The notes beneath the pieces were generated by a model, which was not told the DNA's origin, searched no databases, and saw only the letters and a list, made by a program, of their open reading frames with translations. This document shows positions 37,170 through 55,207 of a stretch of DNA of 64,000 nucleotides, piece after piece; position 1 is the first letter of the stretch; each line of letters begins with the position of its first letter. Source of the DNA: Naegleria gruberi (lineage: Eukaryota); the NCBI GenBank assembly GCA_000004985.1, contig GG738903.1; one strand, 5' to 3'. The position numbers and the translations under genes are program-made.

Positions 37170-38051
37170 TTAAAGAGAGTAAACTTCGTAATCTAGAGTG
37201 GTAAATTCACGAGTTGATCCAGTCAAGTAATCCTTTCCCAAATTTGAATAAGTGAATGGATTAGTGAAACTTTTCTTGGTACCTCTAGCAATGAAAATAT
37301 CATGTCCACCTCCAAAAGTTGGATGATCAACAGATCTATGATAAACTGAATAATTGACATATGCAGAATGTGGTCCATCTTGAATCAATTTCTTGAATCT
37401 TTCATCTCTCTTTGGTCCAATTAAACTAAATAAGAAAGCTTTGGAATCTGGGAAGAAATCCAACATTGCTGAACTCCAACTCACTGAAGTATAACCTCCA
37501 AAGATAGCTCCTGAGCTTGCCTTAATAATTGTTACAGTTGGTCCTTGATTATCACATTTTGAATGGAAAGATCTGGCTCTGAATCCATCCTTAGATGCAT
37601 TATAAAGTAATTTCATTGGTCTAGTTTTAACATCTTTCAACAATTCATCAATAAATCTCTTAGATTGATTTGCAGTTAAAAAAGTTGATTTTGACAAATC
37701 TCCAATTAATCCCAAATCCACCTTTGATTCCGTTTTCCTCTTACTTGTTCTCTTTTTAAGAATTTTCAGTTTAACGCTCTTTGATTTTGTTGGGTTGCCA
37801 TCCTTATTAGCATTCAAGGTAACCCGAGGAGCATTTCTATTCCTAACAACAACTGCTTGTTTACGCATCACCTTCTTACCATGTTGGTTTTGTTGTTGTT
37901 TTGATCGTTTTATTAATCTTGCTGTTGCCTTAATAGAAGCCTTGGTAGTTCCCTTAGCTTTCTTCCCCTCAACAGCAGAAACAACAACAACACTCAACAC
38001 GACCAACAGCAACAACAATAACAAGAAGAAAACGCCTCTCCTCATCATCAT
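37170..38051 (-). CDS. TLDc-domain protein with signal peptide and a Lys-rich basic region
   Basis: Signal-like MMMRRGVFFLLLLLLLVVLSVVVVSAVEG. C-terminal LLYNASKDGFRARSFHSKCDNQGPTVTIIKASSGAIFGGYTSVSW… is the TLDc pattern (LLYR.S.DGF…FH..CD..GPT.T.I……FGGYT…W). Confidence 0.6.
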   Translation of the reverse strand: MMMRRGVFFLLLLLLLVVLSVVVVSAVEGKKAKGTTKASIKATARLIKRSKQQQNQHGKKVMRKQAVVVRNRNAPRVTLNANKDGNPTKSKSVKLKILKKRTSKRKTESKVDLGLIGDLSKSTFLTANQSKRFIDELLKDVKTRPMKLLYNASKDGFRARSFHSKCDNQGPTVTIIKASSGAIFGGYTSVSWSSAMLDFFPDSKAFLFSLIGPKRDERFKKLIQDGPHSAYVNYSVYHRSVDHPTFGGGHDIFIARGTKKSFTNPFTYSNLGKDYLTGSTREFTTLDYEVYSL

Positions 38052-38308
38052 ATCGTTTTGCTTTAATTTTTTAATGATGAACTGTAAAGGTGAATGGTAG
38101 CGGACAGTAAAGGAAGAATTTTGTCAATGCACTCTATGGCCAGAGTTGAGATAATAGAATTGAGAGAAAAAGAACAAGTATATGAATTTGTTTAAGGAGC
38201 CTGATTCTCATAGTGATTTTAATTTTATGATTAAAAAACATGTTGTGATGATGAACGCGGGAGATTAGTACGATTTCCTCAAAATTAAAGAAAATTGATG
38301 TAAAAAAA

Positions 38309-41300
38309 ATGTCGGCATCAGCAGATTATGATTCAAAGAAGAGAAAAATTTTGGAGGCTTCTGATTCAGTTGATCAAATTGTTTCGGATGAAAATGATAG
38401 ACTCATTGATCAAGTTTCTGATGCGCTTCATCGATTGACTCTACAAAAACGAGCTGATTCAATGGTAATGGCATTGGTCGATGATAAAAGACAAGTTTCA
38501 TCATCATCATCTTCCCGTGATGAAAGGCTTGATTCTCTCCAGCAAATGCAACAAGAAAAAGTTGTTGTGTTGAAAGTTGGTGGTAAGTTCTATCAACTTC
38601 ATCTTTATTCGAATTTAATATATTTTGATCATCCATAGGAAAATTCTTTAACACAACAATGAGAACTTTGGTGGGAGAAAGAGGAAGAAAATTAGAAAAT
38701 TTGGATAATGACGAAGAAATGAAGGAAGGTGAAGAAGAAAAACAAGATGAAGACGAAAACGATGAAAAAGAAGAAACAAAAGATGATGATTGTGAATATG
38801 TCACAGCACAACCGAACTTGTTCAAAGTCATGTTTGATTCTGGAATTGGCATTGAGAGAGATGAAGCAAACAAGTCTGCAATTTCATTCCCTGATAGAAA
38901 TCCAGACTATTTCGAATATGTTTTAGAGCACTTGAGACAGGGAGGAAAAGTTAAATCGCTTGGTGTTGAGAAATTGAATGCCAATCAGTTGGAGAACATT
39001 TTGGAAGAGTCCAATTATTTTGCAACTGAAAAGTTATCAGAGTACATTCTATTCTTACTCGAAAAGTATCACAAGTTACATGGGTCGAATTTGGGCAAGT
39101 TTGCTGAAACAGAAGATCAGAATTCAGAATCTAAATCATTAATAGTACCTCAAAAGGTTGAAATTCCAATTGAACAAGTTAGACAAAGACTCCTTCTAGT
39201 TGAAGATTCCATCAATGAATCAAAGAAGGTGGCCAAAGAATTATCACTCAAATTAGTTAGCAAGTACCAGAACTTCATCTTGGGAAATGATTTAGAGACT
39301 GACCTGTCTGTTAAAATTGATGTTTCTGGTCAAATTTTCACAATTCCTTTTGCCATTTTGCAACAGCATGAAACTTTCCTCATTTCCAAGTACATTTTAG
39401 CACCAAATTTTTGTTTGAATGAGAATGGGTGCATCTTTATTGATAGAAGTCCAAAGTTATTCGCCCTTATTCATTCATATATGATTAGTGGCAAATTTAC
39501 TCATTTCCCAAAAAACCTCTCAAGGGAAAAGAAACATCAATTGAAGCAAGAAGCAGAATTTTATGGTGTCATCTCTATTATTAATGATTATCTTGATCCA
39601 TTACGTTACCCAGTTGAAAAGATTGGCCAAGACAATATTGAATTGAAAGAAAAGGAAGACAAATTGAGAGAAATATATGCAAAGGAAAGAGAATCACCAT
39701 TATTGAACGATCCATATCTATTACTATCACCTCTCTTCCAAAATTTAGAAGAAATTAATGATCAAGAAAAGTACAGAATTGATTTTGGAGAATGTCCTAA
39801 ATTATTAGATTTATCTGACAAAACCAGATATTCCAGACAAGTTTCTAAACCTCAACTTTTAACTAATTTGGGCGCTTTCAAATTGAATTGGCATAGATTC
39901 ACGCAAGGAGCACTCAAAGGTCTGGATTGGAACAATGTAATTGCTGCAGGTGAGTTCAATTAATTCTTCGATTTTAATTTATAATATTTAAATTAGGTGG
40001 TGGTATTCTTGCTTGTTGTTTGAAACCTGACACTTCCGAAAATATCAGTACCGTTGGTCTTAATTTACCACGCAATGGTTCTGAAAGAAAAAAGTCTTCC
40101 AAACCAATGATGGATGATAATGAAGAGAATGATGTTTCAGATTTTGGTTATTGGAAAAGATTGAAAAAAGAATCATCAGCAGAGGAAGGTGAGTCATTAA
40201 CACAAACAAAGCTTGATAAGGATAGATATCTTAGGGGGGACACGACTATATACAGGTTTCTTAGTTACACAACAGACGATAAGAGAACAAATTTGAGAAA
40301 TCTTGAGAAAATATATACACCCATCATTTCTAAAACAACAGCTGTTCCTGTGGTGGATGAAAAGAAAGAAGACGCTTTTTTCATTCCAGAGGCAAATATT
40401 CCAAGCTCATTTAAAAATTCAGATATTGATCTCTTTCTGTATGCTCTAAGTGAAGAACAAGCAGAAGAAAAAATCAATCACATTTATCAAACCATTAAGA
40501 AAAATATGAGATCTAGATTAATTACAAAATATTCTGAAAAAACTAATAGTCAAGATTTCTTAAGCGGAGAAATGGTCAGGGCTTATGAGGATGGTGTTAT
40601 CAGAACTGAAGAATGTACGGTTAATGATGATGTTCTGGTTGTTAGAACTAAATTTGCTGTTACATTCTATTGTTACAAACTCAGACCAATTCAAGTTGTT
40701 TTGAGAATTTACAAATCACCTGCTGAAGTTTTGTTAGGTTTTGACATTGATTGTGCTACTATGGGGTATGATGGATATCAAGTTTGGTCAAGTGAAAGAG
40801 CAAGAAGAGCTTTAATGTATCATACTAATCTTGTTGATGTTGATAGACAATCTACAACTTATGAATATAGATTATACAAGTACAGTAAGAGAGGTTTCTC
40901 TGTTTCAATTCCAGGTTATGATACTGCTAAAGTTCAAAATCAATTGTTGCAATATCCACGAAGATATTCATTTAATTCTACTGAGTATTTATTGCATGGC
41001 TTGGCAAGACTTATTGCTTTCGATAACTCTTGTCGCTCTAGATACCCACAACGTGTTTTAGGCGCGTATGACAGAGATAACCAAGCACAGTCAATTGAGG
41101 AAAATTCAGTACTTGTACTTTCTGGTGAGCTAAATGTCAAGTCAGATTATCTTGATCTGAACATCATCAAATCACACAAATACCCTCCAAGTATTATCTT
41201 TGAAACTTTGGAAAGAGCTCGCAAGGTTGTTGCCAAGATTAATTTAGAAAAAGAAGATACCTTTACGCGCTCACTTGATACGTTTGTTTTAGACAGCAGA

Positions 41301-41981
41301 TTGAAAGAAAATACATCTAACATTATAAGAAAGAGAAATCCAGATTGGAAACCACACTTTATTTATACTTTAAATGATATTGATACCATAATTAATAATG
41401 AAATATTTGATTCCAGACTCTCCAAGAAGATTGAGTTTCTTACAGTTGATCCAGGAACTCAAAAAATTGGTTCTTTCCATCCTAAGGATATTAACTTTTA
41501 TAGAGATGCCTATCAACCAGTTCCATCCACTAATTTACCTGTTTTAGGTGATGAATATTCCACAAATACATACATTTGGTACAAGTCAATGACTTCACCT
41601 CCAGAACAAGTAATTAGCAAAACGGACAAAAGATATCAAAAATTACCTGTTAGAACTGCTCCTTTTTATTCACTTACCAATGAAGTAGTATGGTTCGAAG
41701 TGTTGACACCAGAAGAAAGCAACACAATAGAGACTGAATACAGAAAGTACCTTATTTACAAGAGTCCTGAAAGATTTGCACTTTCAGAATGTGAAATAGT
41801 TGATTTTTCATTGAATAGACTTTTCTGTGTGATACTACTCATCCCTTCCAACCAAATACCTTTAAATTATTATTCCGAAAAGAATTTTCTGATTACAATG
41901 GCTATCATGATGATGAGGGTACCAATAAGGTTGATATTCTGGCTTTCAATGCACACTATTAAATATCAACATTTTATTTAA
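38309..41981 (+). CDS. Protein with two BTB/T1 (KCTD-like) domains and a long uncharacterised C-terminal region, three exons: 38309..38582, 38639..39949, 39997..41981
   Basis: Intron 1 is GTAAGTTC…ATCCATAG (38583..38638, 56 nt). Intron 2 is GTGAGTTC…TTTAAATTAG (39950..39996, 47 nt). Both are in phase and join three track ORFs. The first T1/BTB is VVVLKVGG|GKFFNTTMRTLVGERG…FPDRNPDYFEYVLEHLRQGG. The second is IDVSGQIFTIPFAILQQHETFLISK…IDRSPKLFALIHSYMISG. Acidic linker; ~1190 aa in total. Confidence 0.6.
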
Positions 41982-41994
41982 TCTAATATATTAT

Positions 41995-42519
41995 TTAGAA
42001 AGAATGCATCAACTTTTCAGCTTCAGTATCAGAACTTGGAAGATAACCACAATTTCCTTCAGTCATCAAAACTGGAACATTGCATTCCAAAGTGACATCC
42101 AATTCAGTTCCATTAACCTTATAGGAATAACCTTCAAAATCATTGGCTTCCTTGTTTGGATTGTGAACAATCTTCAAAGTCATCTTGGTTAATCCAAGGA
42201 AAGCTTCCTTACAATCAGGATCCTTCATAAATTCTTCTGGAATGTCAGAACACAATCTGGCAATTCTTCTTGACTTCATCAAGAATTTGACAACACCAGT
42301 GACGGCTGGAGCATCTTCAGTGTCCCATGAACCAAACTTGTACTTGAGATCACCTGGGAGTGAGGTAACACTATCCCAATCCAATAAGAAGACCATTTGA
42401 GGATTGAGCTTTTGCAAATCACTATTCCAACCCTTAACTTCAGCATACAATTCACGAGCTAATTTCTTGAATGGAAGAGAACCAGACTTTGGGAGGAATT
42501 GGGCTTCGTAGTCAGACAT
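41995..42519 (-). CDS. Conserved hypothetical protein, 174 aa
   Basis: Intact ORF with a true ATG (MSDYEAQFLPKSG…) and complex composition. Its 3' end is 13 bp from the stop of the convergent BTB gene. No family recognised. Confidence 0.45.
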   Translation of the reverse strand: MSDYEAQFLPKSGSLPFKKLARELYAEVKGWNSDLQKLNPQMVFLLDWDSVTSLPGDLKYKFGSWDTEDAPAVTGVVKFLMKSRRIARLCSDIPEEFMKDPDCKEAFLGLTKMTLKIVHNPNKEANDFEGYSYKVNGTELDVTLECNVPVLMTEGNCGYLPSSDTEAEKLMHSF

Positions 42520-43144
42520 GTTGATTTGTTGTTTTGTTGTTTTTTGTTTGTTTTTGTTGTGGAAAAATAGTTCTGTGAGAGTTGCGTGCTATTTAAGGCC
42601 TGTAAAATTGTAAGAAATCTTGCGCCTGTACTTTGAACTGTATCGACACAAATCATTTTACGGTAGGGGCGGAATTGGATTGGTCGTTAAAATCAGCCAG
42701 GGAAATCTCTATACTTGTCCTTATTCCTTCCTTAATAGCGAACGATACATCTTGTTATCTCTGGAAATTGGGAAGGAATATGCTTCGAATCGTGAAATTT
42801 ACACTTCATCAACGAGGAATAACACAATTTTATCAGTTGAATCATATTACAGTTGTTGTTGATGTAACATTACGTAAAATCAATAGTAAGGCCTTACTAA
42901 AAGCACAACGTGTTTTAGTGCATGCTTAATTACAAGTTTATTAATAATATTTGGTGGTGATAATATTCAACCTTAATGATAAGGTTAAATATGAAGATAT
43001 GAATTATCATCAACAACAAGAACATGAAATCAAGATTCAAAGAAATTGACTTCCAATTCTTGTTGGATCATTACCAAACAAACTTGTTTGCATAATGAAA
43101 ATGCAATCATGTTAAATTTCTTTAGGTTTATAAATTTTAAAAAA

Positions 43145-43978
43145 ATGACTGAAAATCATCAGGTGGAAATGGATGACTTGTTTTCATCGTCATCATCCGA
43201 TGATGAAGAATACAACAATACTACACTATCATCAACAACAAGAACAAAAAATCAAAAAGAAGAAAAGTCTGAAGATGAAGAAGAATTGGATTACATGGAC
43301 GATCAATTTATCAAATCCCTTGAATCCGTTGATCACGAAAGGCTTCCAAATATTCATCCATCAGAAGCCTTTCCGTCCAAGAAACTCTCCTTCCGAAATG
43401 TTCCTCTCGAATTGATTCAAGCCTACAACACGGCTCGAGAGGAGAAACAATTTAAAAAGGCTCATCATTTGAAGAAACAAATTCGTGATTATAACATCAA
43501 GGAGGAAATGTTGGAAAAGGCAAAATTGTCTCTTTCAAAGAGTTTGATTGTACAGGAGGAGGAAAAGGAAGCTGGAAAACAATCGGTTGGACTCAAATTG
43601 TTGAAAAGAATGGGATTTGAGCAAGGATCTGGATTGGGAAAGAATAATCAGGGAAGTGTTGCTCCAATTAGTATTGATAAACAGTTGGATTACTTGATGG
43701 AGAGTATGGATTCAAAGATGAAGAAACCAATTATTGGACTTGATGAAGTGCAAGTAATGAAGAGAGACGAGATTGAGAAATTTAAAAGTGAAATGGAACA
43801 AAAGCAAGAAAAAAAAGCTCCCCTCACTGAGGAGGAATTTACCAAAATTATGAGGGAAAAACATAAGGAACAAAAGAAGAAACGTAAAATTAGAATGGCT
43901 TTGACTGAGGATGCTGCTGAGGCAGTTGCTAAAAAGGTAAAACAAGATGAAGAATGGGAAGAGTTTGAGGATTTTTAA
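43145..43978 (+). CDS. G-patch domain protein (GPATCH11/CCDC75-like) with acidic N-terminus and Lys/Glu-rich tail
   Basis: G-patch GLKLLKRMGFEQGSGLGKNNQGSVAPI. The first ATG (MTENHQVEMDDLF) is at 43145; the track start 43046 is upstream in the same frame and its start codon was not verified. Confidence 0.6.
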   Translation: MTENHQVEMDDLFSSSSSDDEEYNNTTLSSTTRTKNQKEEKSEDEEELDYMDDQFIKSLESVDHERLPNIHPSEAFPSKKLSFRNVPLELIQAYNTAREEKQFKKAHHLKKQIRDYNIKEEMLEKAKLSLSKSLIVQEEEKEAGKQSVGLKLLKRMGFEQGSGLGKNNQGSVAPISIDKQLDYLMESMDSKMKKPIIGLDEVQVMKRDEIEKFKSEMEQKQEKKAPLTEEEFTKIMREKHKEQKKKRKIRMALTEDAAEAVAKKVKQDEEWEEFEDF

Positions 43979-44087
43979 ATATTGTGCTGAAAACTTCCTT
44001 TCAACTTCCCTTCAAAATTAACTATTTTGAAATAGATGAAAATAATGGAAGAAATATTTGAAAAAGCGCCCAAATTAGAATTGTTTA

Positions 44088-46591: not shown

Positions 46592-47800
46592 TTATAATTG
46601 AGAGATGGCTGATTCTTGAGGTTTTGATAAGGAAAATATGCTAATTTTGTCCCAAAGTGGAATTTCAGTGAAAATTTCTGATTGGTCAACTAGGATTGGT
46701 ATTCCACTAGTGTTTGATTTGGTTTCACTATTCACATATTCTCTAAAGTCTTCCTTTCTAATAATCTGATCTGAATTCAACGCAGATTGAGAAATGTCAT
46801 CTCGTTTCTGAATAATTTCGACACTTGTCACAGATTGTGAGCTAGCGCTGTTAAATTCAATCAATACAAAGTCCAAAGGACCAAATGAAAATGTTACAAT
46901 AATGCAAAATAAGAGGAGGGATATTTTGTGGATGAATAAACAAATAGGATAAAGTGGAATATAGTAAGCGAAAGCAAATCCTCCAAAACTCATTGAAATT
47001 AAGTTGAGAAGAGCCATGTAGAGTTGACCAAATGTTAGTAGGAGCATTTTACGACATGATTTTCTTCTCTGATCGGTTACTGGAAACTTTTGATTGAGAA
47101 TTAGCTTTCTAATTAGTAAAACAACAATTACCATATTTAGTATGGGAAAGAAGATGGTTGCCAAACAAATGATTGAAATGTAAAATCCGAAAATAACCCT
47201 TGAAATGTTGGACATGATGGTAAAACCTTCAGAATCTATCCATTTCCTTTCGGTGTCATAATATTTGAAAAGACTATAGGTTATTACTAATGGTATTACA
47301 ATTACAATAATCAAGTTGACTATTACAATAAGTGTAATACTTGTTATTTTGATAAAATCTCTCAGCCTCTGATTACCCTTATTCATTCTCATCCACTCAT
47401 GTGATTTGTTAAAATACAATCCATACAAAATTTTTGTAACAACACCAAGGCAATTGGTGCACATTACAATTGACAAGAAAAAAAGCGACTGTTCCAATGA
47501 CGCGCTAATTACTATAAGAATTTCTCCAAAATCTACAAGAATTGAAGTACCAGTCACTATCCCCACTATCTGGAACACTTCTTCCAAAGCAAAAACCAAT
47601 AAAACCATTGAATATAGCAATTTCTTATTGTAAACCATTTTTTTGTAATTCATAATGAAAATGACAAACATAAATACAGAGCAACTGGAAAATATGATGA
47701 ATCCGATACCATTCAATGGTATTCCAATGCTTGATGTCACTATATCTTCCATAGGAATCGTTGAATTGCTGCTCAGAGTTGCAAAAACGTCATTTGCCAT
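46592..47800 (-). CDS. Seven-TM receptor, member 1 of a tandem paralog family (novel family, conserved motifs VLYG.YFN.S..WMR, L.FGQ.YMAL.N and C-terminal FSFGPLD)
   Basis: 402 aa, true ATG, seven hydrophobic helices, N-glycosylated N-terminus (MANDVFATLSSNSTIP…). Shares motifs with 49028..50128, 50277..51344 and 53810..55207. Confidence 0.65.
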   Translation of the reverse strand: MANDVFATLSSNSTIPMEDIVTSSIGIPLNGIGFIIFSSCSVFMFVIFIMNYKKMVYNKKLLYSMVLLVFALEEVFQIVGIVTGTSILVDFGEILIVISASLEQSLFFLSIVMCTNCLGVVTKILYGLYFNKSHEWMRMNKGNQRLRDFIKITSITLIVIVNLIIVIVIPLVITYSLFKYYDTERKWIDSEGFTIMSNISRVIFGFYISIICLATIFFPILNMVIVVLLIRKLILNQKFPVTDQRRKSCRKMLLLTFGQLYMALLNLISMSFGGFAFAYYIPLYPICLFIHKISLLLFCIIVTFSFGPLDFVLIEFNSASSQSVTSVEIIQKRDDISQSALNSDQIIRKEDFREYVNSETKSNTSGIPILVDQSEIFTEIPLWDKISIFSLSKPQESAISQL

Positions 47801-48059
47801 TTTTTTTTTGATATGACTTATCTCTGTAAATGCAGATACTCGTTCTGACCTGCCATGCAGACATTTGCTTTCTGGAATGGTGTTGTCATTTCTAATTTAA
47901 TAAAAGAGATACATCACCATTAAAAGAGGTACCATATGTCCTCAAAACAGTGCACATCAAATGGTTGAGTGAAGATTCTCAATAAAGACTTGACAGCCAG
48001 AGGTTTTGAATTCTCAGTTGACCAAAACATTCAATCAAAGAGATATGAAACACGAAAAA

Positions 48060-48866
48060 ATGTCCGATGATGATGATAAGGATGATGATAAGGAGAATCG
48101 GGAGGGATGTAGTTTGTGTGTTAGTAGCAAAAAGAGGAGCAATACAAACACAGAGTCACCACCACCCACTGAATCAATGGAAAGGTTTACTCAAAGGTGA
48201 AACTAACTCTTGGAAGGTGTTTTGTAAAGAATCTGATGAGAATAGTATGGATTTTTTAATTTGTTATCTTGACTTTTTAACTTTGTAACTCCTTAATAGC
48301 AGACATGGTCTAGTGTTATTGGAAGGTCAACAAGTTTCGACTATTTTCGATTCAGCTGAGGTCATACGGCTGATTTGTGATTTATTAGTGCAACTTGCAA
48401 AATTAAAGAACCAGCGAATCATTCACATCGATTTAAAGCCAAATAATATAGTGAAATATGGTGGCCATTATTTTATAACTGATTACGGATTGTCAATTTG
48501 TTATCATTCATTGGATGGAGAGGTTTGCAGGGATGAGACTAATGAAATTATCAAATCAACAGCAGGCTCTCTTTTTTATGAATCACCTGAGAAGGAGGAG
48601 GGTTTATATCTCCGAAAAGTGATATATTCTCATTGGGATGCACTATTGATGAGATAATCAACTATTCCAAAGATAATAATTCTACTAATGGAAATCAATT
48701 TAATAACAATGTAATAGAACTTATTTCGCATATGAAAGACCCATCGATTAAGACTAGATGGTCAATTGAACAATGTGTTACACTCCTGAAATCTCAATAC
48801 AAAACAGAGCTAAAGACAAGTGTTGATCTTTTCTTGCAAAAGGAAAAGTATGTTAAACGATAACAA
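48060..48866 (+). pseudogene. Truncated protein-kinase-like gene (catalytic C-lobe only) with one intron and an internal single-base frameshift
   Basis: Exon 1 48060..48196 (MSDDDDKDDDKENREGCSLCVSS…); GTGAAA donor; 103-nt intron ending CTTAATAG; exon 2 from 48300. Exon 2 encodes …IIHIDLKPNNIV (HRDLKPxN-like), ITDYGLS (DFG-like) and GSLFYESPE (APE-like). The subdomain IX motif KSDIFSLGCTIDEII follows only in the -1 frame (shift near 48600-48620). No GxGxxG or VAIK region exists between the upstream gene and exon 1. Confidence 0.5.
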
Positions 48867-49027
48867 TTGTTCGGACGATTCATTGTTCTATTAAGCACTA
48901 TAGGTTTCAATAAACCAAAAAATATGACTCAATTACTACTATTTAGATGGTGGTTTCAACATGTCTATATCTTGGAATCGTCATTTGTAGGTAGTAAAGT
49001 AATTGTCCCTATATATGGAGAGATAGG

Positions 49028-50128
49028 TTACACTTTATTTGGGTCAATTGTTTCGTTTGTTTCGTCTTTTTCCACCACAATTTCTGAAACTACCTTAGTA
49101 GAAACATTTGCTTTCACATCCCTTTCCTCAATCTCAATCTTATTCATTGATTTCCTTTTTACAATATTTGCCAATTGATGTCCAAATTCAGAAACATTAT
49201 CCAGTGGTCCAAAAGAAAAGTTTACAACAATACAAAAAATGAAAATTGATGATCTGTGAATTAAAATTGAAATTACACTGAGTGGCATGACAGCACTAGC
49301 AACTCCGGCAGTAATGACACCCACTGCATTCATCATAGACATTATAACTTGACCAAAGTTCAGAATTAGCAAGTTTCGGCAGACTTTCCTTTTTTGGTCG
49401 GTTATGACACTTTGATTTTGACCAAGTAGCTTTCTAATCAACAAGACGGTGATTGTAAAGTTGAGAATTGACAAATAAAAGAATGCTGCAGATATTACAC
49501 TTCCAAGAGTTGGATGAAATATTTTTGTAAACTGTTGTATAGTAAGAACTTGACTCAAGCTCAGAATTTTCCTTCCCGGATCAATAAAAGTCAATAATGA
49601 TGAGATAAACGCATAGGGCATGCTCAAAATCAACAGCAAATTGAAAAATGCAACAATTCCAATCGTTGAAATAAGCACCACTTTCTTACCAATCGAATGA
49701 AGTTTCGAATTTCTCATCCAAGTTTGATTTTCATTAAAATACACTGCATAAAGTACTTTCGTTATAACAGCCTGACAATCCAAACATAATGTCAAGCTCA
49801 ATAAATATCCAGCAAACTCAAATCCAAGAAAAGTTCCGGTCAACCCAAGTGGACCAACAAGCAGAGCTGAAGTATACCCAATTAAACCACATAATTGATA
49901 AATCTGCTGATTTAAACAGGTAAATATCAAGAGTAGGTACATTAATCTCTTGTTTTTCACCATTTTCTTCCATTTATAGATTAGTAGAATCGTCATGGAA
50001 AGTAGAAGAAACAAGAAGAATAAAGCTCCGAGAGAATTGAGAGTAATGATGGAAATAAAGGTGCCAAGATAATCTGATTTGGCTGTAGGTGAGGCAGATG
50101 TTGTAGAGTTGGTCAATGTCGAGTTCAT
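49028..50128 (-). CDS. Seven-TM receptor, member 2 of the tandem paralog family
   Basis: 366 aa, true ATG (MNSTLTNSTTSASP…). Motifs VLYAVYFNENQTWMRNSK, LNFGQVIMSMMNAVG and FSFGPLDNVSEFGHQLANIVKRKS. Confidence 0.65.
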   Translation of the reverse strand: MNSTLTNSTTSASPTAKSDYLGTFISIITLNSLGALFFLFLLLSMTILLIYKWKKMVKNKRLMYLLLIFTCLNQQIYQLCGLIGYTSALLVGPLGLTGTFLGFEFAGYLLSLTLCLDCQAVITKVLYAVYFNENQTWMRNSKLHSIGKKVVLISTIGIVAFFNLLLILSMPYAFISSLLTFIDPGRKILSLSQVLTIQQFTKIFHPTLGSVISAAFFYLSILNFTITVLLIRKLLGQNQSVITDQKRKVCRNLLILNFGQVIMSMMNAVGVITAGVASAVMPLSVISILIHRSSIFIFCIVVNFSFGPLDNVSEFGHQLANIVKRKSMNKIEIEERDVKANVSTKVVSEIVVEKDETNETIDPNKV

Positions 50129-50276
50129 TCTTTTTTTTTGATGTCTTGAAATGTCAAACTGTCAAGAGATAATTTAGAGACGAATCTAAAAACAAATTGG
50201 GAGAGACATTGTCATTTTCAGTTTTTCATTAGTTTTCATTCAATTTTCGCGAAATAGATACATATTTGTAGAAATC

Positions 50277-51344
50277 TTAAACTTTATTTTCTGATTCCTT
50301 ATTCGAAAGCTCTGCCTCCTTATCCTTAATATGAACATCAGTCTTAATAGAAAGAGATCTCCTCTTCACAACATTTGCCAACTGCTCACCCAATTCTGAA
50401 ACATCATCCAATGGTCCAAAAGAAAAGTTTACAAAAATACAAAAAAGGAAAATCGAAATTCTATGAGAAGCCAATCCAATCACAAATAAAACAAGAGGAA
50501 TTACAGTAGCCACTCCCATTATTATAATTCCAATGATATTGAGCAGTGCCATTAACACTTGTCCAATGCTTAAAATTATTAACTTTCTGCAACATTTCCT
50601 TTTTTGGTCAGTTATGATACTTTGACAAAGATAGAGTTTTCTGATTAGTGAAATTGAGAGAGAAAGATTAAGCACGCAAAAATATAGGAAGGAAAGTGAA
50701 ATGAGAGCTCCCAAAACTGGATGGAAAATTCCAGTAAATTGGCGAAGTGAGCTACTTTGAGATGGAGTGAGAATATCAACTTTGACAATTATGGAAAATA
50801 TAAAGGCGAAGGGGATGCTTAGTACTAATTGTAAATTAAAGATTGTTACTATGAAATACTTGTAAACTTTACAAAATTTCTAAATATGGAATTTTCTTTT
50901 GAATTTCTCATCCATGTTTGTGATTCATTAAAATATACTCCAAAAAGAACTTTAGTAATAATCGCCTGACAATTCAATAATAATGTCAAGCTCAATAAAT
51001 ATCCAGCAAACTCAAATCCAAGAAAAGTTCCATTCAACTGAGGCGGACCTTTCAAGAATGAAGTTAAATATCCAACCAATCCACAAGTTTGATAAACAAA
51101 CTGATTCAAACATGTAATTATCAACGCTATCGACATGATTCTCTTATTTTTAACCATTCCTTTCCATTGAACTATCAAGAGAATGGTCATGAAAAGAACA
51201 AGAATGAAAAAGAGAAAACTTCCCACAGAATTCAAAGTAATGAGAGATATTACTTGGGCATTGTTAGTGGATGAAACTGTAGAGTTTTCTGTTGTGTTGG
51301 TAATGTTTGATATAATCGTCGAGTTGAATATCATCTTGTTTTTT
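50277..51344 (-). pseudogene. Seven-TM receptor, member 3 of the family, split by a single-base frameshift near 50855
   Basis: N-terminal ORF 50849..51394 (first ATG 51344, MIFNSTIISNITNTT…) ends …NFVKFTSIS*. The +1 frame continues without a gap as …FIVTIFNLQLVLSIPFAFIFSII… into ORF 50277..50714, colinear with paralog 49028..50128 (…LISTIGIVAFFNLLLILSMPYAFISSLL…). There is no room for an intron, so a T-run indel is implied. Confidence 0.55.
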
Positions 51345-51707
51345 TTTATATTTGAGTTTCGTATCTCTTTTGGATTCAATTGACCTATATACAAATATCT
51401 CTAATTGGTTGAATATCAACAACAAGCGTGATCTTTCTTTACATGCAATGATGGAGTTGTTCTGTAATTCTAAATATCTTGTTCGGTCAATTTGTCAACC
51501 TGTCATATTAAATTATCTCTTTAAATCATAAACAATTTAATCTTTTCAAATAGTTTTACATTCGGTATTAAAGTTTTCAATTCTTTCAATTCAACCTTAC
51601 TTTCGGCCACAATCTCAATCGAAGCAAATGTTTTAATTGTCTTGGCCAATTCAATGCCCAACTCTGAAACATTATCCAGAGGTCAATTGGGTGTGATGCC
51701 AATAGAT

Positions 51708-53285
51708 TTACTTGGCTCTTGAATTTCTCAAAGTTGTTAAGAAAATACCAAATGTCTGAAGAAATGATTCTAGTTTGACAGTCAGATTATCTCCATTAAT
51801 AGCTTTCATATCCATGTTTGTCCATAGTGTATATTCATTCCCTTTCCATCTAGAATACTGTTCAAATGATCTCATACTTCGTGTCTTGTAAGTTTTCCAA
51901 ATTTCCAATAGTCCTGAAGTTCCATCTGGAAGAAACAAACTATTTGTCAATCCAAGATCATGATAACCAATAAGAAAATCAGCTTGATGAACTCGTTTCA
52001 CTTGCTCTACAAATGAAAACTTATTGAGATCAATTCGTTCTAAAGTAAAGGTATAACCATACTCTGGATGCTTTTTCAAATTGATTAAAACTTCATCTTC
52101 GTTTGTGATTTTTCCCGAGCTCACAAAAAGTCCTCTAATCATTTCATCTGATGATGAGAAAGAAGGTCTTCTCTTTTCTATTCCTAGAGTGCTTAGAATT
52201 CTATCTGAAAAGGCAGTTACGAGTCTAACTTTGGATTTGCATTGGCTTGGATCAAACTCTGAAAAATCTAACAAATTGGATTTGAGTTGAGTGGCCACTC
52301 CAGCATGTTGAAAGATGGCTCTTTCAAATCGAACTGTTTTTTCCTTGAAATAGGAAGCTTTTCTAGCAGGTCTCTTCAAGGAGAAGGTAGAATTCCACAA
52401 AAAGTCATATGGAGATTCGTAATGTTCATCCAACAATACAATTTGAACATTCTTACTATCCAATTTGAACATTTCAATCATTTGAAAAGTTGCAAAGAAA
52501 TCTGACAAGGCATGAAACAAATTGGCGTGATCATCTTGTTCTCTAGTAACGAAAATAGTCACTCCATCAATGTATTCAACCTTATCCTTCTTTTCCTTAA
52601 AATTTTCTTCCTTAAATGTTTTGAAACTTGAGAAAATTTCCTTTCCAAAGTGTTTTGAAAATTGAGAAAGATCCAAATTCACTGGATTTCTCTTACACTT
52701 GCCAAGAAGAGCTCCTGCCAAGTATGTGTAATAGGTTTTCCTTTTACAATTATAACCAGGTCTGTACTTTAAACATGGCACTCGTTTCAATTTTGAAAAA
52801 TCCATCACCAAATTACTTGATTCACAAACAGTGTGTGGAAATGTATCCGAATCAACATGTTTGTTATTGTTCTTGTAACATGTGAGAGTGGCTTGATTAG
52901 TTTCCATCTCCTTCTTCTTTTCCAAATCAATAAGACCAGAACTTGGAATGACATAATCGTCCTTTTCACACATTTCAATAGCTTGTTGCTTCCATGTTTG
53001 CAAAAGACCACATCCATACTCTCTTTCACACAATTCCTTCTGCTTTTCTTCTTCAGATAGGTTAACACTTGATGGTAGATTGTTCATTGAGATTGGTTTA
53101 GTACATATGAGTGGTGGAATCCTAGAAGGACGAAACTTTTCATCATCTGTTGAAACATCTTTCAAAGATGATGTTTCCTTAGAGTTTGTCGTTTCAATAG
53201 TTACTGAAAATTGCTCTCTCCTAGTTCCCTTCCCAACAGCAGTATTCACCAAACCAATAGTACGAGCATTCTCATGGATATTCAT
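51708..53285 (-). CDS. Glycosyltransferase family 61 (DUF563; EOGT / beta-1,2-xylosyltransferase-like)
   Basis: 525 aa. C-terminal …FVEQVKRVHQADFLIGYHDLGLTNSLFLPDGTSGLLEIW matches the GT61 signature (…A.V..G.HGAGLTN..F…GA.L.EI). Also …IFVTREQDDHANLFHALSDFF…. No N-terminal TM or signal anchor seen, so a 5' exon may be missing. Confidence 0.55.
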   Translation of the reverse strand: MNIHENARTIGLVNTAVGKGTRREQFSVTIETTNSKETSSLKDVSTDDEKFRPSRIPPLICTKPISMNNLPSSVNLSEEEKQKELCEREYGCGLLQTWKQQAIEMCEKDDYVIPSSGLIDLEKKKEMETNQATLTCYKNNNKHVDSDTFPHTVCESSNLVMDFSKLKRVPCLKYRPGYNCKRKTYYTYLAGALLGKCKRNPVNLDLSQFSKHFGKEIFSSFKTFKEENFKEKKDKVEYIDGVTIFVTREQDDHANLFHALSDFFATFQMIEMFKLDSKNVQIVLLDEHYESPYDFLWNSTFSLKRPARKASYFKEKTVRFERAIFQHAGVATQLKSNLLDFSEFDPSQCKSKVRLVTAFSDRILSTLGIEKRRPSFSSSDEMIRGLFVSSGKITNEDEVLINLKKHPEYGYTFTLERIDLNKFSFVEQVKRVHQADFLIGYHDLGLTNSLFLPDGTSGLLEIWKTYKTRSMRSFEQYSRWKGNEYTLWTNMDMKAINGDNLTVKLESFLQTFGIFLTTLRNSRAK

Positions 53286-53809: not shown

Positions 53810-55207
53810 TTAATCATTGAGAGGAATATCAACAAAGATATCTTCATATTGTATATTATCGATTTTCGTCGTAGTAGTTTGATGATGATCAGTAGCAGTA
53901 CTCATAGTGGTATTACTGTCATTACTTTTCTTACTGTCATTACAATTGGTTGGAGCACGCAACTGATCAGTTGCAATCGCCTCCTGAGGCCCAAAGGAGC
54001 TAGTAATGTTGAAGGGTGAGTAAATGGGCTGCTTGTTTGTTGCTGTATACTTGATCATCATCATGGAAGATATTTCGCTGGCTTTTCTAAATGCCTTTGA
54101 ATCAATATTGAAAGAGTTTGAAGTTTTTTGATTGGTGAGTTGAATTTCACTGGTTTGACATGAGGATTGAGTATTATCCCCATGTGGCTTCTTCTTACCT
54201 TCCAATTTTAATTCATAATGAAAGTAATCCATAGGTCCAAAACTGAAACTCACACAAATGGCAAATAACAGAAACACAAATCTATGAATGACACCAGTCA
54301 ATATGAACAAGTATGGATACCATATACCAATAGCTCCCAAAATAATTGAGATTGAATTAATAATTGCCATGTAGAATTGACCAAATGTTAAGAGTACCAA
54401 CTTTTTACATGCATTTCTGCGAGGGATTGGGACTGGCCTGTTTTGGAGAAGGTATCTTGAGAGTAGAAGAACCAAAGTTAAATTTAACACTCCTGTAATG
54501 ATGGCACATCCAGAGTTTACAAGACCAACAATGGCCACAGAAATAATTGACCAAATGCCAAGAATACTTCCAACTCGTGTATTTCCTCCATCCATATAAT
54601 ATACCATTGAACAGATCAGAGTGAATGGAACGAGAATAATGAATGCAATAGTCCAAATTAATGTCATTCCAATTGTGTAATATTTTGTAAATATTCTAAA
54701 CTTTTCATTGAATGAATAGCTTTCTGCTCCCTTCCTCATCCATGAATGAGATTGATGAAAGTAAATTCCATACAATACTTTTGAAACCATTGCTTGAAAA
54801 TAGGTACACATTACAACAGTTGACACGAGTCCACAATAATAAATAACGAAAAATAATTGACTCAAAAATTCCTGAATATGAGTCAGTGCTCCAACATCGT
54901 GAGCTATTCCAACTCCCTGTGAGAGAATTTGCAAGATGGCTGTAAATATTAAGGAAATGTAAAAGAATCTCTTGAAGGGAATCATTTCCTTCCATCGTTT
55001 GATGAGGAGAGTGGTCATTATAATGGTCAGTATCAGATAACTCAGTATTCCAATTCCATGAGTAGTAACAGAAATGTAGTATCGTTCTATTGCAGAAGTA
55101 AAAGTTGATGATGAAATATTGTATTGATGGAAAACTATTCCTGGATTCAATGAGCCATGCTGATGCTGGTCAACAATAGAAACAGTCATCTCACGATTAT
55201 TATTCAT
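53810..55207 (-). CDS. Seven-TM receptor, member 4 of the family (most divergent, longer C-terminal tail)
   Basis: 465 aa, true ATG. Motifs VLYGIYFHQSHSWMRKG, LTFGQFYMAIINSIS and FSFGPMDYFHYE. Ser/Thr/His-rich tail. Confidence 0.65.
   Translation of the reverse strand: MNNNREMTVSIVDQHQHGSLNPGIVFHQYNISSSTFTSAIERYYISVTTHGIGILSYLILTIIMTTLLIKRWKEMIPFKRFFYISLIFTAILQILSQGVGIAHDVGALTHIQEFLSQLFFVIYYCGLVSTVVMCTYFQAMVSKVLYGIYFHQSHSWMRKGAESYSFNEKFRIFTKYYTIGMTLIWTIAFIILVPFTLICSMVYYMDGGNTRVGSILGIWSIISVAIVGLVNSGCAIITGVLNLTLVLLLSRYLLQNRPVPIPRRNACKKLVLLTFGQFYMAIINSISIILGAIGIWYPYLFILTGVIHRFVFLLFAICVSFSFGPMDYFHYELKLEGKKKPHGDNTQSSCQTSEIQLTNQKTSNSFNIDSKAFRKASEISSMMMIKYTATNKQPIYSPFNITSSFGPQEAIATDQLRAPTNCNDSKKSNDSNTTMSTATDHHQTTTTKIDNIQYEDIFVDIPLND

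Follow-up and report, generated by a model that had tools for sequence, protein, structure and literature searches.

A probable decayed duplicate of a Naegleria kinase-like gene between receptor-like genes of Naegleria gruberi

The stretch of Naegleria gruberi DNA analysed here (64,000 nucleotides, referred to as the window) contains a short kinase-like locus that a preliminary description, made from the letters alone, had presented as a "headless" kinase gene, whose product would be assembled by splicing and carry an acidic leader in place of the ATP-binding N-lobe. Our analysis instead identifies the feature as an apparently unannotated, decayed duplicate of a Naegleria kinase-like gene. Judging from its sequence, the locus is most likely a non-functional pseudogene remnant of a duplicated member of the EFC49779 family, a small and uncharacterised group of kinase-like proteins. 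The same description had also offered a decaying kinase as one possibility, and this agrees with an in-frame TAA codon, a 1-nt frameshift, an absent N-terminal region, changes at two otherwise invariant residues, and an approximately threefold higher rate of evolution.

The window has a GC content of ~34% and contains long ORFs, most of them uninterrupted. Four of these exactly match deposited N. gruberi proteins from one 304,373-bp scaffold (Table 1), and the window is N. gruberi nuclear DNA. The R2 and R3 genes on the far side of the kinase remnant repeat with a period of ~1.2 kb, whereas R1 and R2 are spaced 2,325 nt apart, so that the remnant takes up roughly one extra kilobase. The preliminary description had placed the kinase among receptor genes, and it does lie between the receptor-like paralogs R1 and R2, but the identity of the array proteins as receptors is plausible rather than proven. 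None of them matched any Pfam family, even at E<=10. In an AlphaFold model of R2, itself of low confidence (pLDDT 56), seven long helices are joined by a helix 8; Foldseek matched this model best, although weakly, to class-A GPCRs (E 4e-3, TM 0.35-0.5). The R1, R2, and R4 proteins look like members of a 7TM family specific to the lineage. Collinear with R2 at 53-59% identity, R3 switches frame without a gap, which is a 1-nt indel and not an intron; R3 is either a second pseudogene of the array or the site of a local sequence error. A metagenome contig from ENA (L002; ERR1078381 k127_589664, 5755 bp) derives from a close Naegleria relative and has the same gene order as the window at 51.7-57.3 kb (SPRY-like protein, R4-like receptor, and GT61), with the two GT61 proteins falling into one 90%-identity cluster. 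The contig stops short of the kinase locus and holds no second copy of it. It should be noted that several long ORFs at 38000-44000 are also without an exact entry in the protein collection (Table 1), and that EFC39028, at 44-46 kb, apparently comes directly after EFC39027, at 37-38 kb, among the deposited accessions; this interval is under-annotated, unless the gene models that were deposited are not the same as the plain ORFs.

Table 1. Coordinates of features in the 64-kb window (positions count from the first letter of the window).
Feature	Coordinates	Strand	Remarks
EFC39026	32511-35390	-	exact match to deposited protein
EFC39027	37170-38051	-	exact match to deposited protein
BTB_2-domain ORF	38659-39963		no exact entry in protein collection
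653-aa ORF	40020-41981		no exact entry in protein collection
174-aa ORF	41995-42519		no exact entry in protein collection
G-patch ORF	43046-43978		no exact entry in protein collection
EFC39028	44088-45935	-	exact match to deposited protein
R1, ORF of receptor-like multi-pass membrane protein	46592-47800	-	upstream of kinase remnant, divergent
Earlier "exon 1", MSDDDDKDDDKENREG...	48060-48197	+	ORF outside the family-homologous frame
Segment A, N-lobe remnant	48133-48285	+	family HMM 401-451, E=4.5e-5; NSWKVFCK (48205-48228) and DFLTL
Segment B	48289-48599 (HMM match 48301-48600)	+	family HMM 457-558, E=4e-37; beta5/hinge LVLLEGQQ, helix DLLVQL, HIDLKPNN (HNDxKPxN in the family), TDYG (IDYG/IDFE in the family), SPEK
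Segment C	48600-48863 (HMM match 48600-48857)	+	family HMM 560-648, E=1e-19; GFISPKSDIFSLGC (subdomain IX), C-lobe helices, family C-terminal motif LFLQKEKY, stop TAA
R2, receptor-like paralog	49028-50128	-	downstream, convergent with kinase remnant, 164 nt from its stop
R3, receptor-like paralog	50232-51394	-	frame change ~50852-50855
EFC39031, GT61 glycosyltransferase	51708-53285	-	exact match to deposited protein
R4, receptor-like paralog	53810-55207	-	further array member

The kinase C-lobe motifs reported earlier are indeed encoded on the + strand, with HIDLKPNN at 48424-48447, DYG at 48481-48489, SPE at 48583-48591, and KSDIFSLGC at 48615-48641, while the TAA stop codon of the kinase frame was found at 48861-48863 instead of the previously given gene end of 48866. 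The frameshift-corrected translation passes the membership threshold of the Pfam Pkinase family (PF00069; E=1.1e-13, 51.7 bits for a cut-off of 31.7 bits), with the match limited to positions 92-217 of the 263-position profile, i.e. from the hinge to subdomain IX. The catalytic-loop Asp, Lys, and Asn as well as the DFG-type Asp are kept in the window copy; the Arg of HRD is replaced by Ile here and by Asn throughout the family. A genome search for a full-length parent kinase had been proposed, and the best match is an N. gruberi paralog of 666 aa, EFC49779 (XP_002682523, NAEGRDRAFT_62395; hereafter P0001), annotated as a "predicted protein". When 1.84 billion representatives were scanned exhaustively with HMMER, the in-frame 100 aa encoded by 48304-48603 matched residues 463-558 of P0001 with 62% identity over 96 aa (phmmer, E=2e-28); five proteins scored below 1e-10, and none of the representatives was a near-100% match. 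A word-indexed search with the corrected protein returned no match, but it likewise missed the 62%-identical P0001 and is therefore not counted as evidence. When metagenomes were scanned for an independent copy of the locus, only kinases of 32% identity were recovered. Searching with a profile of the family alignment contributed a single further protein, a distant one.

With P0001 as the tblastn query, the window locus aligns without a break from 48205 to 48600 in frame +1 (P0001 residues 427-559, 59% identity) and from 48600 to 48851 in frame +3 (48% identity, residues 561-650). A family HMM built from three proteins (P0001, P0151, and P0007) likewise matches three collinear pieces, segments A to C, between which lie a stop codon and a frameshift. 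Segment A is in the frame of the ATG at 48067, whereas the earlier "exon 1" that it overlaps is in another frame; it also fills most of the "intron". Confident homology begins at ~48178-48205, and upstream of 48205 pairwise alignment to the relatives was significant in no frame in a shuffling test. The kinase-like domain can thus be read in a single ancestral frame from ~48133-48205 to 48863, corresponding to the last ~250-270 of ~670 codons, and the first ATGs of this frame are at 48067-48075. The homology with EFC49779, C9374_005630, and EFC50839 is collinear over the whole kinase-like domain, and the window copy and the family have in common the signatures NSWKxFCK, LTL(F/Y), DLLVQL, IIHxDLKPxN, DYG, SPEK, SPKSD(I/L)FSLG, and the C-terminal F(L/K)QKEKY. 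Judged by these domain signatures, the window copy belongs to the EFC49779-type family.

The first lesion is a TAA nonsense codon in the ancestral frame at 48286-48288, within the N-lobe. Relatives have a Tyr or Phe at this site, directly following a conserved "LTL" (LTLF in P0001 and P0004, LTLY in P0151 and P0032), and a single substitution from TAY or TTY suffices to produce the TAA. No Met codon occurs in the open frame after it. The second lesion is the 1-nt frameshift that had already been reported, which is borne out at ~48598-48602 in the purine run GAGGAGGG, where the frame moves one base back, to 48600. In family members, SPE and SPKSD are seven residues apart, whereas the window has six codons plus 2 nt here, so the simplest reading is that 1 nt has been deleted at ~48600, past the SPE motif and ahead of subdomain IX. 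Thus, where a functional gene would have an intact frame, the window copy has a nonsense codon as well as a frame change.

The locus had been modelled as a spliced gene, and the nonsense codon was overlooked because it falls within the supposed intron. According to both tblastn and the family HMM, this intron (48197-48299/48302) is homologous coding sequence in the paralogs, as it encodes NSWKVFCK...DFLTL, for which the P0001 counterpart is NSWKAFCK...KFLTL. The acidic 45-aa leader said to replace the N-lobe is in another frame, and no homolog of it was found; the N-lobe code lies inside the "intron". The acidic character of the leader is due to a GAT/AAG trinucleotide repeat at 48066-48095 (GATGATGATGATAAGGATGATGATAAGGAG), which reads as DDDDKDDDKE in one frame and as MMMIRMMIRR in the ancestral kinase frame, and the leader ORF is most likely a chance ORF. 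Splicing could nevertheless be defended by taking the frameshift as a sequencing error and joining the leader (48060-48196) at 48300/48303 to the C-lobe to give an N-lobe-less regulator. A frame-restoring GT...AG pair does exist for this purpose, it would be the sole way to translate the C-lobe given that no Met follows the TAA, and C-lobe-only family ORFs are annotated in N. fowleri (e.g. FDP41_009855). However, 20 of the 45 GT-AG pairs in the leader/"intron" region give an in-frame, stop-free junction by chance, so the existence of one such pair carries no information. Moreover, the "intron" is conserved as coding sequence in the N. lovaniensis relative as well as in the paralogs, and the single mapped family intron lies elsewhere: the N. 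lovaniensis P0151 gene is interrupted only once, by a 53-nt intron that follows codon 7, and its kinase region, with the proposed position, is free of introns. The leader has no homolog and overlaps the repeat, the model proteins have no exact entry in a collection of 15 billion proteins, and the frameshift must still be an error. The spliced product would be 163/164 aa and would end 22 out-of-frame residues past SPE, without the alphaF-alphaI core. We consider this reading very unlikely. An even shorter "intron" (GTAAC...AG, 15 nt, 48285-48299) that removes the TAA was rejected as far too short for a spliceosomal intron, and a search of the literature on the Naegleria kinome, pseudogenes, and intron consensus found nothing usable.

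The idea of a naturally N-lobe-less regulator of the pseudokinase type is not supported, in view of the N-lobe code itself. Of all frames of 47801-48330, only the ancestral one has a VAIK-like motif, namely the VFCK at 48217-48228, which lies inside the proposed intron; no Gly-rich loop of the form GxGxx(G/S/A) was found in the + strand frames of that interval. A canonical GxGxxG loop occurs in no family member either, and in all of them, full-length or not, the Pfam Pkinase match starts only at profile position ~82-94. The apparent absence of a GxGxxG/N-lobe signature is thus shared by the whole Naegleria family and is not peculiar to this locus. The window VFCK aligns with AFCK of P0001, which is part of NSWKAFCKQ (residues 427-435), a stretch predicted to form a beta strand; the Lys of this strand aligns with the lysine of VAIK in beta3. 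In an AlphaFold2 model of P0001 computed from an 8-sequence alignment, this strand is part of a five-strand, N-lobe-like sheet (pLDDT 50-75), and the five strands are followed by a short helix directly before the hinge. The pLDDT of the model is >80 in the C-lobe, 50-75 for residues 390-470, and <50 for most of residues 1-388, while Foldseek aligns the model with complete kinase domains over ~270-300 columns (E~1e-9, target-normalised TM 0.5-0.6). The model and its Foldseek alignments provide moderate evidence that the EFC49779 family has a reduced but real N-lobe and a bilobal kinase fold. The apparent headlessness of the window copy can thus be ascribed to a divergent N-lobe together with a nonsense codon that splits it. 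Upstream exons encoding an N-lobe had been named as the finding that would make this a normal kinase; N-lobe code is in fact present, which comes close, but it is broken, and it belongs to the locus itself instead of to exons further upstream.

The searches that were run recovered the family from Heterolobosea only. Besides P0001, it includes C9374_005630 of N. lovaniensis (P0151; 663 aa, 43% identical to P0001), EFC50839 of N. gruberi (P0007; 684 aa), and ABK040_012962 of Willaertia magna (337 aa). The full-length members P0001, P0151, and P0007 (locus L001, 10001-12045) have a ~390-400-aa N-terminal region without a Pfam match and with low AlphaFold confidence. Family motifs include HND for HRD and DYG/DFE for DFG, and since the catalytic Asp, Lys, and Asn are conserved, the family may be an active atypical kinase. 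We set aside an origin of the family as a mobile-element gene, given that matches to Pkinase_fungal were weak (E 5e-3 and 6e-4) and that so few representatives score below 1e-10. Short members are also found, namely EFC37993 of N. gruberi (115 aa) and, in N. fowleri, FDP41_009855 (173 aa, C-lobe only), FDP41_006018/005955 (231 aa), and FDP41_010563 (159 aa). One N. fowleri locus (L008, 6001-6522) has the C-lobe-only 173-aa ORF, which starts 105 nt past a methyltransferase gene; a second (L007, 4795-5685 and 6001-6696) has a copy that lacks profile positions 213-426 and is divided between two gene models, of 229 aa and 231 aa; and a third (L003, 2054-2305) has an 83-aa family fragment. Like the window copy, the short members of N. 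gruberi and N. fowleri are kinase-domain or C-lobe pieces at unrelated, scattered loci, some of which also have no space for the upstream parts; unlike the window copy, which is interrupted twice, they are open frames that have been called as genes. Evidently, the EFC49779 family leaves partial copies in Naegleria genomes. It is conceivable that Naegleria keeps such small proteins of the family, with only a kinase domain or a C-lobe, as non-catalytic regulators, and that the window locus is one of them; the 173-aa and 231-aa proteins of N. fowleri and the 115-aa protein of N. gruberi could be examples. If so, the window locus would be expressed through the splice of leader to C-lobe or from an intact allele, perhaps co-regulated with the 7TM receptor-like genes. 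We consider this highly improbable.

Unlike EFC49779, C9374_005630, and EFC50839, the window copy is without the ~390-400-aa N-terminal region. Positions 1-400 of the family HMM have no match anywhere in the 64 kb, and only 266 nt separate the start of R1 at 47800 from the first kinase-frame ATG at 48067, which leaves no room for such a region. The full-length gene of N. lovaniensis has unrelated neighbours (VWA, DEAD-box helicase, inositol phosphatase, and PI-PLC), and the window locus therefore does not correspond by synteny to the place of the parent. In the 216 columns shared by the three sequences, identity is 55% for the window copy and P0001, 37% for the window copy and P0151, and 44% for P0001 and P0151, a pattern that points to a duplication in the N. 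gruberi lineage after its split from N. lovaniensis and to a longer branch leading to the window copy. In a Tajima relative-rate test with P0151 as the outgroup, 31 changes were unique to the window copy and 11 to P0001 (chi2=9.5, p=0.002), by which estimate the window copy evolved about three times faster than P0001. Of 20 columns without any variation among the other members, the window copy deviates in two: its catalytic loop has HID for HND, and IDYG has become TDYG (all eight other members have HND and ID). Among 42 class-conserved columns only two deviate, and neither count is worse than in some intact members. An AATAAA occurs at 48909, 46 nt after the stop, and an A6 run at 48917 is the only candidate for a 3' poly(A) remnant. 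No flanking direct repeats were found around the locus; at this divergence, both kinds of retroposition mark would have decayed. Neither the 15-billion-protein collection nor its contig index contains the ORFs of the locus, and in contrast to EFC49779 and its relatives, the locus has no annotated protein. It appears to be unannotated, although its product might possibly have been absorbed into the 50%-identity cluster of P0001.

From these results, we propose that the copy arose by duplication in the EFC49779 lineage after N. gruberi and N. lovaniensis had split, that it would have lost, or never received, the N-terminal domain, and that it would then have drifted under relaxed constraint. The locus would presumably make no kinase-fold protein, because even the sole splice that bypasses the stop truncates the product before the alphaF-alphaI core. 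Several observations run against a pseudogene. Outside the two lesions the sequence is well conserved, including the family motifs, so the inactivation may be recent, or the lesions could be assembly errors or occur in a single haplotype. The frame change of R3 is 2.3 kb away, and the region could be one of locally poor sequence rather than of two dead genes. The gene slot also looks normal, with its 266-nt divergent spacer, ATGs at 48067-48075 in the ancestral frame, and an AATAAA. Taken together with the annotation of short kinase-domain-only members, of 337 aa in Willaertia and of 173-231 aa in N. fowleri, these observations could indicate an intact kinase-domain-only gene of ~265 aa, running from the ATG at 48067 to the stop ending at 48863, whose lesions are assembly errors or belong to one haplotype. 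This would however require that 320 nt contain two errors of independent origin, and one of these would be a base substitution, a kind of consensus error that is unusual, whereas the flanking R1, R2, and GT61 genes are intact and GT61 equals its deposited protein exactly. In addition, relaxed constraint would fit both the faster rate and the loss of the otherwise invariant HND and IDYG residues. We therefore regard an intact gene as unlikely. A transcribed pseudogene that acts at the RNA level or through a truncated peptide, for example on R1 via the shared 266-nt promoter region, is suggested by geometry only, i.e. the head-to-head arrangement with R1 and the retained AATAAA. Rfam finds no match in the window, and the chances of such a role appear very slim.

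Decayed gene duplicates are routine, and a pseudogene remnant at this locus matters little in itself. Annotators should mark it as a pseudogene instead of giving it the gene model of a spliced "headless kinase". Two points of method also follow: hand-chosen GT-AG "introns" may conceal nonsense codons, and an absent GxGxxG or Pfam N-lobe match can reflect a divergent family rather than a truncation. The family may be of some interest as a lead for kinome surveys, with its occurrence, in the searches run here, in Heterolobosea only, its large N-terminal region, reduced N-lobe, HND and DYG motifs, and partial copies.

Compared with the protein kinases of PF00069, the window copy has a recognisable catalytic-loop Asp/Lys/Asn, DFG-type Asp, APE-like motif, and subdomain IX. 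Among sequences with solved structures, AAK1 and BIKE, both NAK-family kinases, come closest, AAK1 being the best PDB match (E=1.2e-8, from the hinge to subdomain IX), a distant resemblance that establishes no subfamily membership. The EFC49779 family as a whole departs from canonical kinases in that it has no GxGxxG loop, has HND instead of HRD, and has an N-lobe invisible to Pfam. Pseudokinases resemble the window copy in combining a kinase fold, here as predicted for the family, with deviations at canonical motifs, but their ORFs are intact and their catalytic residues lost, whereas the window locus presents the opposite arrangement, with most catalytic residues kept, the ORF broken, and an apparently accelerated lineage rate, a combination at odds with a regulator of the pseudokinase type.
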